Positions 2,402 to 3,501 of a DNA stretch of 22,395 nt are shown here, in pieces (the first letter of the stretch is position 1; each line of letters starts with the position of its first letter). The notes under the pieces are model-generated. The model was given only the letters and a program-made list of their open reading frames with translations, did no database searches and had not been told where the DNA came from. The DNA is from a virus (lineage: Duplodnaviria > Heunggongvirae > Uroviricota > Caudoviricetes): IMG/VR virus record IMGVR_UViG_2879765931_000006; one strand, 5' to 3'. The translations under genes and the position numbers were made by a program.

Positions 2402-2430
2402 AAGGCATATATCTCATGCAAATCTGATAC

Positions 2431-2458
2431 TTTGCCGATTTTGTACGCGATGGTAAAG
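2431..2458 (+). promoter_or_regulatory. candidate late promoter PR' (-35 TTGCCG, 16-nt spacer, -10 TAAAGT)
   Basis: Sigma70-like hexamers 30-57 nt downstream of the Q stop and just upstream of a short hairpin plus T-run; matches the PR'/qut/tR' layout of lambdoid phages. Sequence-only prediction. Confidence 0.3.
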
Positions 2459-2464
2459 TAAGCA

Positions 2465-2488
2465 AAACCCGCCGCCGAGCGGTTTTTT
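2465..2488 (+). terminator. tR'-like intrinsic terminator (short GC hairpin + T7 run)
   Basis: aaCCGCcgccgaGCGGttttttt: 4-bp GC stem with A/T extension followed by seven T. Confidence 0.4.
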
Positions 2489-2577
2489 TATGCCTGAAAA
2501 ATGGCACAGGACGTTAAACGTGCTGGTGGTCAGATGAGTTTGCAGATGTGATGACATATGGTTATTATTCTGCCTCC

Positions 2578-2653
2578 GGCCCTTTAGCTCAGTGGTGAGA
2601 GCGAGCGACTCATAATCGCCAGGTCGCTGGTTCAAGTCCAGCAAGGGCCACCA
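2578..2653 (+). tRNA. tRNA-Ile2 (anticodon CAU, lysidine type; ileZ-like), possibly tRNA-Met
   Basis: Cloverleaf: acceptor GGCCCTT/AAGGGCC, anticodon loop CTCATAA, T-loop TTCAAGT, encoded CCA; close to E. coli ileX as recalled. Confidence 0.85.
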
Positions 2654-2654
2654 A

Positions 2655-2731
2655 CCACCACTAGCTCATCCGGATAGAGCATCAACCTTCTAAGTTGACG
2701 GTCCGAGGTTCGAGTCCTCGGTGGTGGGCCA
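2655..2731 (+). tRNA. tRNA-Arg (anticodon UCU, reads AGA)
   Basis: Acceptor CCACCAC/GTGGTGG, anticodon stem TCAAC/GTTGA with loop CTTCTAA, T-loop TTCGAGT, encoded CCA. Confidence 0.8.
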
Positions 2732-2733
2732 GC

Positions 2734-2809
2734 GCCGACTTAGCTCAGCAGGCAGAGCAACTGACTTGTAATCAGTAGGTCACCAGTTCGATTCCGGTAG
2801 TCGGCACCA
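2734..2809 (+). tRNA. tRNA-Thr (anticodon UGU)
   Basis: Acceptor GCCGACT/AGTCGGC, anticodon stem ACTGA/TCAGT with loop CTTGTAA, T-loop TTCGATT, CCA; resembles host thrU as recalled. One A-C mismatch in the T-stem. Confidence 0.75.
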
Positions 2810-2812
2810 TAT

Positions 2813-2887
2813 GCGGGCATCGTATAATGGCTATTACCTCAGCCTTCCAAGCTGATGATGCGGGTTCGATTCCCGCTGCCCGCTCCA
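2813..2887 (+). tRNA. tRNA-Gly (anticodon UCC)
   Basis: Acceptor GCGGGCA/TGCCCGC, anticodon stem TCAGC/GCTGA with loop CTTCCAA, T-arm GCGGG-TTCGATT-CCCGC, CCA; resembles host glyT as recalled. Confidence 0.8.
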
Positions 2888-3501
2888 GCGAGATTTGAGA
2901 CGAAGGTTGTTATTTGCACTGACACAATATTGTGTGGGAATGTCTGACTCCTTACCATCTCCTGTTCTGTGATGTTGTTTTGTTGCAGTTCCAGTGCTCT
3001 TTTTTCAGCACCAGAATGGTGCATTGTCGGTCAGGTTACGTAGTGAACCTCTGGCAGGGGACTGATGATTCATCATTCTGGTGTTGTAAATATCTCTTCG
3101 GACAACTTACAAAATATTCTAAGCAAACCCCGGGAACACACTCTTAACTGCCTTGGCTGGCGGTTTTTTGTACAGCGCTCGGTATGTGTGAGCTGGAAAT
3201 CAGATTTTGCATGGACTGGAATCATGCTGTTATTTAGGGGCGAAGAACTGGCTTTTTCTTCCGCCTTCTCACCAGTAACGATTAGAAAAATAATGAAATG
3301 CCCCCCTCCGGGGAGGAGGACCGTAGAAAAAAGGACCCGCCAGCAAAAACATTGGGGATGAACAGCTTTCGCTACTCAGATTGCTGGCGGGTAAAGTTCC
3401 TCATGAATTAAGAATGCTACGCGATCTTTTTTAATGGAAATGAAAATTATTGTCAATTAGTCGTGCGTGTTTTTTCATACAATATTGGTAAAGGTGATTC
3501 A

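Follow-up and report, generated by a model that had tools for sequence, protein, structure and literature searches.

The locus examined here raises the question of whether tRNA genes that lie behind the antiterminator gene of a lambdoid prophage are passengers of the Q-controlled late transcript or a unit in their own right, and what such a unit would supply. The window, that is, the whole 22,395-nt stretch of viral DNA analyzed (IMG/VR record IMGVR_UViG_2879765931_000006), belongs to a defective phage 82-type lambdoid prophage of Shigella flexneri. A preliminary description, made from the sequence alone, had placed a candidate promoter, a short hairpin with a T7 run and four tandem tRNA genes immediately downstream of a Q-like gene, and had likened this arrangement to that of Stx-converting phages, without the toxin gene. 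It had further proposed that the region is Q-dependent and that the tRNAs were retained to support the translation of AT-rich acquired genes. Our analysis confirmed the observation and partly supported the interpretation. The feature class itself is already known: it has figured in descriptions of Stx phages since the late 1990s, and its genes are annotated in public genomes. The locus is a known module of modest interest, and it accounts for one piece of Shigella genome anatomy. We consider it likely that a late-regulatory end (Q, PR', a sigma70 pause signal and tR') has here been fused, at the terminator, to a self-contained and exchangeable tRNA cassette that supplies minor isoacceptors (Table 1).

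Table 1. Features of the Q-tRNA region and its flanks in the window
Feature	Position	Strand	Basis
Q antiterminator gene, phage 82 type; 229 aa from ATG at 1712, alternative GTG start at 1706	1712..2401	+	Pfam PF06323
Late promoter PR' (82 type); -35 TTGCAA 2385-2390, 17-nt spacer, -10 TATATC 2408-2413	2385..2413	+	Alignment with Q82-type relatives and phage 434
PR' initial transcribed region with predicted sigma70-dependent pause signal	2420..2445	+	Mapping inferred from PMC5001585 and relatives
tR'-like intrinsic terminator; 5-pair stem, 3-nt loop, T7 run	2471..2489	+	Terminator scan
pT, putative sigma70-type tRNA promoter; TTGCAG 2540-2545, 17-nt spacer, TATTAT 2563-2568	2540..2568	+	Promoter scan
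tRNA-Ile2 (CAU, read as lysidine-AU; decodes AUA), ileZ orthologue	2578..2653	+	ARAGORN, Rfam
tRNA-Arg (UCU; decodes AGA, and AGG by wobble), phage-specific scaffold, C1-G72 pair	2655..2731	+	ARAGORN, Rfam (60.5 bits)
tRNA-Thr (UGU; decodes ACA), near-copy of host thrU	2734..2809	+	ARAGORN, Rfam
tRNA-Gly (UCC; decodes GGA/GGG)	2813..2887	+	ARAGORN, Rfam
Non-coding spacer, leading to the holin gene in intact relatives	2888..3561	+	Alignment to L010, terminator scan
ISEc20 (IS110 family), transposase 3587-4783; ends approximate	3562..5020	-	Pfam DEDD_Tnp_IS110 and Transposase_20, junction alignment

The late regulatory end is of the phage 82 type

The Q-like gene proved to be an antiterminator gene of the phage 82 type. 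Its product matches PF06323 with an E-value of 9.7e-90 and has 76% identity with phage 82 Q across 229 aa, the ORF is intact, and exactly the same protein is encoded by many chromosomes of 4.4-4.7 Mb. The likeness to phage 82 extends to the rusA-Q gene order, the -35 hexamer TTGCAA and the 17-nt spacing of the late promoter. This promoter, PR', is the candidate noted earlier downstream of Q, and it can be matched base for base to the published 82 pR' (PMC5001585). A promoter scan calls the equivalent site in one relative (L001) as TTGCAA-17-TATATT and makes no PR' call in the window. The last base of the -10 hexamer is C in nine of nine Shigella-type loci (the window and eight others) and T in all 19 other Q82-type loci.

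In 82 pR', the -10-like element is of the extended type and is accompanied by GCC at +15-17 and U at +25 (PMC5001585); the window has apparent counterparts of each. Taking A2420 as the probable +1, the putative pause elements comprise a TG at 2425-2426, the -10-like hexamer TACTTT at 2428-2433 and GCC at 2434-2436 (+15 to +17), which would set the pause at T2444/A2445 (+25/+26). These positions are kept in relatives and appear to fit the sigma70 pause criteria of the same study (PMC5001585). The hairpin and T7 run of the earlier description were recovered by the terminator scan as a tR'-like element, with a folding energy of -7.2 kcal/mol (z -0.65), compared with -12.5 to -17.1 kcal/mol in four relatives. 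Folding of the whole leader (2415-2500) revealed no special structure beyond this small hairpin (z -0.54). The window thus departs from phage 82 in three places, namely the -10 hexamer TATATC, the pause hexamer TACTTT, which is farther from TATAAT and carries one lineage-specific T-to-C change, and the weakened tR' hairpin. Because of the T-to-C change in the PR' -10 and the weak tR' hairpin, PR' and tR' of this copy appear degenerate, and the Q-dependent part looks like a decaying relic.

Four intact tRNA genes

The tRNA set first read as Ile2(CAU)-Arg(UCU)-Thr(UGU)-Gly(UCC) was borne out in both anticodons and order. ARAGORN places four plus-strand genes at 2578-2887, separated by 1, 2 and 3 nt, and the Rfam tRNA model scores them at 60.5-71.2 bits (gathering score 29; E-values 5e-14 to 5e-11). 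Signs of pseudogenes are absent from all four, and each encodes its CCA end.

The first gene matches ileZ of Stx phages at 75 of 76 positions and K-12 ileX at 69 of 76, compared with 53 of 77 for metT, and it retains the C4-G69 and C5-G68 pairs. The Ile2 reading therefore stands, an elongator Met identity is ruled out by the same comparison, and PGAP labels identical or near-identical copies in relatives tRNA-Ile. The consequence for annotation is that this CAU tRNA should be entered as Ile2, not Met.

The remaining three genes differ in their relation to the host. The scaffold of the Arg tRNA is found only in phages and is common to argN; identity is only 59/77 to host argU and 61/77 to Stx argN (UCG), and reaches 65/77 with the Lys(UUU) tRNA that occupies the equivalent slot in E. 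coli prophages. Direct reading of its sequence gives complete Watson-Crick pairing in all four stems. The Thr tRNA is identical to K-12 thrU at 74 of 76 positions, with both mismatches in the D loop and an unchanged anticodon arm, and the Gly tRNA is host glyT (75/75 with K-12).

A putative promoter and terminators of the cassette's own

The putative promoter pT matches the consensus at 9 of 12 positions, has a G+C-rich discriminator and ends 9 nt ahead of the mature 5' end of tRNA-Ile2. Across 52 distinct upstream contexts, conservation at the TTG and TTATTAT positions is 90% or higher, and the spacer varies in sequence at a constant length of 17 nt. The site coincides with a feature labelled 'pT; putative tRNA promoter' in the record of a 933W-type Stx phage (OP797663.1). 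Searches of the literature on ileZ/argN/argO, or on tRNAs at Stx pR' regions, returned nothing usable. About 40 nt around pT are conserved, which in part may be co-inherited flank.

Downstream of the tRNAs, the spacer at 2888-3561 has 99% identity to the interval between the tRNA and holin genes of the intact relative L010 (6330-7002), an interval that stops about 5 nt short of the holin ATG. Two terminator-like hairpins lie in the spacer, each ahead of a T run: one at 3146-3165 (-10.6 kcal/mol, z -2.8) and the other at 3501-3527 (-14.6 kcal/mol, z -3.1). The first of these lies 259 nt past tRNA-Gly, compared with 13 nt past argO, ahead of stx2A, in Stx2 phages; terminators also follow the tRNA cassette in L001. 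As the earlier description had it, no toxin gene follows: the spacer is non-coding by homology, its small ORFs matched nothing in Pfam or PHROG, and neither stx nor another recognizable cargo gene was found after the tRNAs. A search of 2888-3561 for hidden cargo or structured RNA gave no Pfam, PHROG or Rfam match, and sub-threshold Rfam matches in this interval were dismissed as antisense-tRNA artefacts.

Since a conserved pT precedes the cluster and terminators of its own follow it, expression of the tRNAs is probably Q-independent, as far as the sequence can tell. The notion of a Q-dependent promoter region ahead of the tRNAs thus holds for the layout and fails as simple Q-dependence. We propose that pT would give rise to a polycistronic tRNA precursor with a short leader, in the lysogen as well as in a dead prophage, from which RNase P and 3' exonucleases would free the four tRNAs, and that the downstream terminators would keep pT transcripts out of the lysis genes. 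Where the phage is intact, polymerase modified by Q at PR' would pass tR', the cassette and the terminators, and so yield more tRNA during lytic growth. Such cassettes are better treated as autonomous pT-tRNAs-terminator units nested in the late operon than as passive passengers of the Q transcript.

The cassette is spared in a decayed prophage

The surroundings of the cassette are heavily eroded. On the downstream side, an ISEc20 copy, 99% identical to annotated copies, occupies the expected start of the holin gene; nothing is left of the lysis, terminase and head genes, and phage genes resume with FI at 5046. On the upstream side, an IS3-type element fills positions 1-1177 of the window, and the genes upstream of rusA/Q have been lost to IS elements. 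On either side, IS insertions and deletions approach the cassette to within tens to hundreds of bases and spare it. In a prophage stripped of the genes for lysis, packaging and head formation, the sole small intact module is a tRNA cassette equipped with a putative promoter, and pT together with the tRNAs is the plausible working remnant of this copy.

The S. flexneri genome contains three intact copies of the cassette, each with pT, in prophages that have decayed differently, and all ten ipaH-positive E. coli genomes examined carry 2-5 intact copies each. Co-occurrence with ipaH is explainable because both are physically linked on the same prophage family. As proof of selection, the association with ipaH was rejected: six ipaH-negative genomes carry cassette variants of 92-93% identity, and the remainder is accounted for by linkage on one prophage.

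The tRNAs match codons over-used by acquired genes

The earlier description had argued that two of the tRNAs read the rare codons AUA and AGA, which AT-rich acquired genes such as ipaH tend to use. We tallied codons against K-12 core genes as the reference. In 29 genes of intact sister prophages, AGA, AUA, ACA and GGA occupy ranks 1, 3, 6 and 7 of 61 in enrichment. In 35 type III secretion and effector genes of pCP301, the four decoded codons hold ranks 1, 2, 7 and 12 and amount to 88 versus 17 per 1000, with AUA and AGA enriched 11-15-fold. In the ipaH gene of the window, AUA, AGA and ACA are enriched 3.5-7-fold, and together the four account for 57 codons in every 1000. The cassette offers no dedicated tRNA for AGG and some further enriched codons. 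The tally thus bears out the enrichment of AUA and AGA in ipaH and the pCP301 genes relative to the core; the rare-codon argument was right in direction and too narrow in its restriction to these two codons, as all four tRNAs read A-ending minor codons.

The products of the cassette would accordingly be extra copies of minor isoacceptors, for Ile2 AUA, Arg AGA, Thr ACA and Gly GGA, and the codons supplied would be those that phage genes, ipaH and the virulence plasmid use in greatest excess over the E. coli core. The evidence for this codon-supply idea is a correlation, with which retention of the cluster for translational support would be consistent. Should the link between supply and demand be causal, the cassette tRNAs would modulate the output of virulence proteins. 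A bolder version, which we hold as a tentative and rather doubtful possibility, is that Shigella and enteroinvasive E. coli have domesticated the cassette, so that the 2-5 intact, promoter-bearing copies in decayed ipaH prophages are needed for full translation of virulence genes. Prophage tRNA dosage would then be a virulence determinant, acting through the AT-rich genes of the virulence plasmid and the ipaH effectors.

Alternative explanations

The locus could also be read as a neutral relic, without effect on the cell, that has persisted through shortness of time or by hitch-hiking beside ipaH prophage remnants. The prophage is indeed heavily degraded by the IS3-type element (1-1177) and ISEc20 (3562-5020), PR' and tR' have undergone degenerative changes, the Thr and Gly tRNAs only duplicate host genes, and the window itself joins the cluster physically to ipaH. 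Moreover, the segment from Q to the spacer is near-invariant among the Shigella loci examined (0-1 mismatch, with nearly all differences in tail genes), so that a test for purifying selection on the cassette is without power and constraint cannot be demonstrated. Yet each genome has three independent copies in which pT and the four tRNAs are all intact, although their prophages have decayed differently, the cassette is intact in every one of the ten ipaH-positive E. coli, IS insertions and deletions on both flanks have spared it, and the codons it decodes are those in greatest excess demand in the horizontally acquired genes of the organism. We judge neutrality unlikely. Lower still is the credence we give to a role in counter-defence, in which the cassette makes good the loss of host tRNAs to nucleases that act on the anticodon arm and belong to competing elements. 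Lambda is blocked when P2-Old degrades the tRNA-ThrU of the host, and phage-borne Thr(UGU) tRNAs relieve the block (PMC12445682); the targets of PARIS AriB, Lys(UUU), Thr(UGU) and Asn(GUU) (PMC12409363), are the very post-Q tRNAs of the sister Lys-Thr cassettes and of the Asn-Thr pairs of SfI, Sf6 and P21 (PMC3636060), and the Arg tRNA of the window is built on a non-host scaffold. However, the anticodon arm of the Thr tRNA is that of host thrU, including the CNG pseudo-palindrome, the Gly tRNA is glyT, over-expression of host tRNA-ThrU gave little or no protection from P2-Old (PMC12445682), and a dead prophage leaves no phage to protect. An anti-nuclease role as the main function of the Thr and Gly tRNAs was rejected on the ground that their anticodon arms are the host's; the Arg scaffold does differ from that of host argU, and there is no known nuclease target for Arg here.

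The least probable reading of all is that the tRNAs are strictly Q-dependent and made only on induction, when Q lets PR' transcripts pass tR'. It would suit the position of the cluster directly downstream of Q, PR' and tR', the intact Q ORF, and the sharing of the late transcript by stx in Stx phages. Against it, every cassette examined has a conserved putative promoter immediately before the tRNAs, and a terminator after the cassette is sensible only if transcription starts inside it; in addition, the conserved last T of the PR' -10 is lost in the Shigella-type lineage, and Q may not be expressed at all, its upstream neighbours having been lost to IS elements.

Relatives of the cassette and exchange of modules

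Among the closest known relatives of the self-contained cassette favoured here is that of 933W-type Stx2 phages (for example OP797663.1 and AP012540.1), in which pT-ileZ-argN-argO occupies the position held by the cassette in the window, with Q, PR' and tR' ahead of it and the next late gene behind. The likeness to Stx phages was upheld by comparison with their Q-tRNA-stx region, which revealed a homologous layout with stx2AB following ileZ-argN-argO at the equivalent position. The two cassettes have nearly the same first gene (75/76), a pT alike in place and in both hexamers, a terminator past the last tRNA and, in slot 2, the scaffold shared with argN (61/77). They differ in the followers, which are Arg(UCG)-Arg(UCU) in the 933W type and Arg(UCU)-Thr(UGU)-Gly(UCC) in the window. 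In the window, moreover, the tRNAs are not followed by stxAB, Q is of the 82 rather than the 933W type, and the downstream lysis genes have been lost.

E. coli lambdoid prophages with the set Ile-Lys(UUU)-Thr-Gly (CE0026f, vB_EcoS-689R5 and PhiR47_1) share the slots and spacing of the window, about 93% identity over the cluster and the same pT, often together with a Q82-type Q/PR' module. In these prophages slot 2 carries the anticodon UUU on the common scaffold (65/77), whereas the window has UCU, and the discriminator base is U instead of G; unlike the window, these prophages retain holin and lysis genes. A different cassette family, known here by its layout, is formed by the tandem Asn(GUU)-Thr(UGU) genes that follow Q in SfI, Sf6, ST64T, PS3 and phage 21, lambdoid phages that infect Shigella, Salmonella and E. 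coli. These pairs occupy the equivalent slot, without an ileZ-type leader and with other partners, and their Thr(UGU) tRNA has been linked to over-use of ACA in the phage (PMC3636060).

Each tRNA set occurs behind several antiterminator types, and the cassette evidently reassorts. Where it stands behind other antiterminators, homology begins at the T run of tR', which by these alignments is where recombination joined the Q module to the tRNA module. Our survey of viral contigs relied on an exact 53-mer query that misses a 77-nt Ile variant, and its counts are a sample rather than a census. Slot 2 of the cassette family carries Arg UCU, Arg UCG or Lys UUU, and slot 3 carries Thr UGU or Lys UUU. 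Judged by these comparisons, the family shows natural switching of tRNA identity through anticodon mutation on fixed scaffolds.

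Identity of the tRNA cassette

Exactly four tRNA genes are detected by ARAGORN in the 22.4-kb window, all on the plus strand and all within the interval flagged in the preliminary description, whose anticodon set, Ile2(CAU)-Arg(UCU)-Thr(UGU)-Gly(UCC), is borne out by the scan and by gene matches. The genes score 60.5-71.2 bits with the Rfam tRNA model (gathering score 29), are separated by gaps of 1, 2, and 3 nt, and each encode a CCA end. The Q-like gene proposed upstream is recognized by Pfam and shares 76% identity with its phage 82 counterpart; its rusA-Q gene order is that of phage 82, and the DNA 3' of it aligns with other Q82-type prophages and phage 434. 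Together with the hairpin and T run described below, these results make the observation real, far beyond chance.

A tRNA cluster after Q is a known kind of module, documented in Stx phages, SfI, Sf6, ST64T, PS3, and phage 21 (PMC3636060). The suggested parallel with Stx phages also holds, as the 933W-type record OP797663.1 is annotated in the order pR', terminator, pT, ileZ-argN-argO, terminator, stx2. A putative pT is thus already on record, and public genomes carry annotations of these same tRNA genes. Our analysis adds a base-level map of the 82-type PR' and its pause signal, the apparent decay of the Q part beside an intact and triplicated pT-tRNA unit, the reassortment of cassettes and antiterminators as modules, the likely derivation of the Thr and Gly genes from the host, a scaffold shared by Arg and Lys tRNAs, and a quantified match of codon supply and demand with the virulence plasmid.

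Features of the window in and around the tRNA cassette
Feature	Position	Strand	Basis or remark
IS3-type element	1-1177		window 5' end
Truncated ydfU-like gene, then rusA, then Q	between IS3-type element and tRNA cluster		
Q antiterminator ORF	1712-2401		PF06323, E 1e-89; RusA 5' of it
PR' -35 TTGCAA	2385-2390		
PR' spacer			17 nt
PR' -10 TATATC	2408-2413		
PR' +1	A2420		
Pause-region TG	2425-2426		
-10-like TACTTT	2428-2433		
GCC	2434-2436		
Pause	T2444		
Hairpin and seven T residues (tR'-like)	2471-2489		
Putative pT promoter	2540-2568		conservation across distinct upstream contexts
tRNA CAT	2578-2653	+	ARAGORN
tRNA Arg TCT	2655-2731	+	ARAGORN
tRNA Thr TGT	2734-2809	+	ARAGORN
tRNA Gly TCC	2813-2887	+	ARAGORN
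Spacer, 670 nt	2888-3561		between tRNA cluster and ISEc20
ISEc20 (IS110 family)	about 3562-5020; transposase 3587-4783	-	
Lambda-like FI, Z, U, V, G/T, H ... J and tail-fibre genes	3' of ISEc20		
ipaH effector gene	19798-21549	-	NEL and LRR domains

ARAGORN's "Met" label for the CAU tRNA derives from the anticodon alone and was rejected: the gene matches elongator metT at just 53/77 positions, ileX at 69/76, and Stx-phage ileZ at 75/76, and PGAP labels it tRNA-Ile in relatives. The C4-G69 and C5-G68 pairs, which reportedly mark tRNA-Ile2 for lysidine synthesis (Ikeuchi et al. 2005), are retained. Judged by its sequence, the Ile2 assignment is right. The Gly gene is identical to K-12 glyT (75/75), and the Thr gene matches thrU at 74/76 positions, with both differences in the D loop and an identical anticodon arm. 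In K-12, thrU and glyT share the operon thrU-tyrU-glyT-thrT (window 2734-2887 versus L005 389-748); the Thr-Gly pair looks to have been captured from such an operon, with loss of tyrU and the spacers.

The Arg(UCU) tRNA differs from its host counterpart, matching argU at 59/77 positions. Its scaffold, which is phage-only, has a C1-G72 pair and perfect pairing in all four stems, and A20, C35, U36, and G73 fit arginine identity. This scaffold is common to Arg(UCG), the argN of Stx phages (61/77), and to an E. coli prophage Lys(UUU) (65/77), so that one phage-specific body bears any of three anticodons in the second slot of the cassette. In strain 720632, the third slot holds a thrU body with anticodon UUU in place of UGU, through a single G35-to-T change and one stem change. 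In this cassette family, anticodons thus change while the tRNA scaffolds stay fixed (relatives of window 2655-2809: L001 4468-4544, L011 4174-4249, L002 3629-3705).

An 82-type PR'-tR' unit with signs of decay

According to Bird et al. (PMC5001585), the pause element of 82 pR' resembles a -10 and includes an extended -10, GCC lies at +15-17, and the pause falls at U+25/+26. Elements placed by this description show that the "candidate promoter and tR'-like hairpin" noticed earlier correspond to an 82-type PR'-tR' unit, whose RNA would be terminated at tR' after ~69 nt. The PR' -10 ends in C in the window and all eight Shigella-type loci but in T in 19/19 other Q82-type loci sampled. The tR' hairpin, at -7.2 kcal/mol, is no more stable than shuffled sequence, whereas those of four relatives fold at -12.5 to -17.1 kcal/mol. 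Both features suggest that the Q-linked part has decayed.

Probable autonomy of the pT-tRNA unit

Cassettes at least 98.5% identical to that of the window occur after any of three antiterminator-position proteins, namely the window's Q82-type protein, a DUF1133 protein (FDAARGOS_944), and a 126-aa "Q family" protein (CFSAN029787). The three contexts share sequence from the tR' T run (about 2484) through the tRNAs, while the 80 nt 5' of the T run track the Q type, not the cassette. An exact 53-mer search, which misses the 77-nt Ile variant and so yields sample counts, recovered at least 134 loci with an ileZ-type gene, among them Ile-Arg(UCG)-Arg(UCU) (at least 57), Ile-Arg(UCU) (at least 27), Ile-Lys-Thr-Gly (at least 19), and Ile-Arg(UCU)-Thr-Gly (at least 9, the window and its eight Shigella-type relatives). 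Among the matches listed, each common set sits behind several antiterminator types. Cassette and antiterminator thus reassort as modules.

Over at least 52 distinct upstream contexts, conservation is confined to TTG(ca), a 17-nt spacer, and (T)TATTAT with a G+C-rich discriminator after it, about 9 nt away from the tRNA 5' end; in OP797663.1 this element carries the label "pT; putative tRNA promoter". The window has terminator-like hairpins 3' of the cassette at 3146-3165 and 3501-3527, as do the Stx2 phage and L001, a Q82-type relative, in theirs. On this anatomy and conservation, the cassette is best read as an autonomous transcription unit nested in the late operon: pT would drive it constitutively, the terminators would insulate the lysis genes from pT transcription, and in lytic growth it would be traversed by Q-modified polymerase. 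The Q-dependent layout originally proposed is present in its parts (Q, PR', tR'), but strictly Q-dependent tRNA expression is disfavoured by the pT directly 5' of the tRNAs and by the apparent decay of PR'.

Codon usage and linkage to ipaH

The cassette decodes the A-ending codons AUA, AGA, ACA, and GGA, served by one or two genes each in K-12. These four codons make up 17.3 per 1000 in 38 K-12 core genes (14,306 codons). Their frequency rises to 50 per 1000 in 29 genes from the two intact EIEC prophages that share this cassette (enrichment ranks, out of 61 codons: AGA 1, AUA 3, ACA 6, GGA 7), 57 in the window's ipaH, mainly its LRR half (AGA 2, AUA 3, ACA 6, GGA 23), and 88 in 35 ipa-mxi-spa and effector genes of pCP301 (AGA 1, AUA 2, ACA 7, GGA 12). 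AGG, also readable by the UCU tRNA, ranks 1-3 in all three sets. The tally, a correlation, supports the direction of the earlier translational-support idea and extends it from two rare codons to all four tRNAs.

Among 5,426 complete E. coli genomes, exactly 10 carry ipaH, and the same 10 (H156-H165) each have 2-5 copies of an Arg-type cassette with 98.9% identity; variants of 92-93% identity occur in six ipaH-negative genomes. S. flexneri SFBU1023 has three copies (L146, L148, L149), with pT intact in each and three different antiterminator junctions. Per genome, the cassette copies contribute about 12-20 additional genes for the four minor tRNAs. As in the window, chromosomal ipaH genes are carried by cassette-type prophages, and this linkage accounts for much of the cassette-ipaH association.

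Two other roles were weighed against translational support. That the tRNAs counter host-tRNA-cleaving defence nucleases is in keeping with killing by P2 Old through tRNA-ThrU degradation (PMC12445682) and with cleavage of Lys(UUU), Thr(UGU), and Asn(GUU) by PARIS AriB (PMC12409363), but the anticodon arms of the Thr and Gly tRNAs are the host's own and over-expressed host ThrU gave little or no protection (PMC12445682), leaving this role very improbable. That the cassette is a neutral relic of prophage decay is unlikely. It is the more probable of the two, the stretch from Q to the spacer holding no variation on which to test constraint.

Flanking sequences and prophage context

As the preliminary description stated, no toxin gene follows the tRNAs. 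The sequence at 2888-3561 shares 99% identity with the entire spacer between the tRNAs and holin gene in L010, an intact EIEC prophage. Its ORFs have no Pfam or PHROG match and the spacer no Rfam family, so it holds no toxin or other recognizable cargo. A perfect 14-nt palindrome, ACACAATATTGTGT, at 2922-2935, 35 nt 3' of tRNA-Gly, is kept in L010 and lacks a following T run; it may act as an operator-like element or a processing site. The L010 homology ends about 5 nt before the holin ATG, where ISEc20 starts. The phage-side 30 nt at this junction (3532-3561) also adjoin ISEc20 copies on EIEC invasion plasmids, suggesting sequence-specific targeting or co-transfer of the flank. A roughly 230-nt non-coding stretch (4784-5020) lies 5' of the ISEc20 transposase, the location in which IS110-family elements reportedly carry their guide ("bridge") RNA.

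The lambdoid prophage that makes up the window is degraded and devoid of lysis, terminase, and head genes. Many NCBI chromosomes of 4.4-4.7 Mb encode exactly its Q protein and share its Q-tRNA-IS110-FI layout; SFBU1023 is the named match in a species-representative scan, the window locus being one of its three cassette copies. The ydfU-like gene 5' of rusA is truncated by the IS3-family element, and in strain L019 (4796-5972) the same element adjoins Q directly, with rusA gone. These insertions point to ongoing decay upstream that has spared Q and the cassette. Relative to other strains (L013-L020), segment 1356-3531 shows 0-1 mismatch, and nearly all of the 45-110 mismatches in the window fall in tail genes (5023-8400), with tape-measure proteins of 912 and 1013 aa depending on the strain, consistent with recombination among resident lambdoid prophages.
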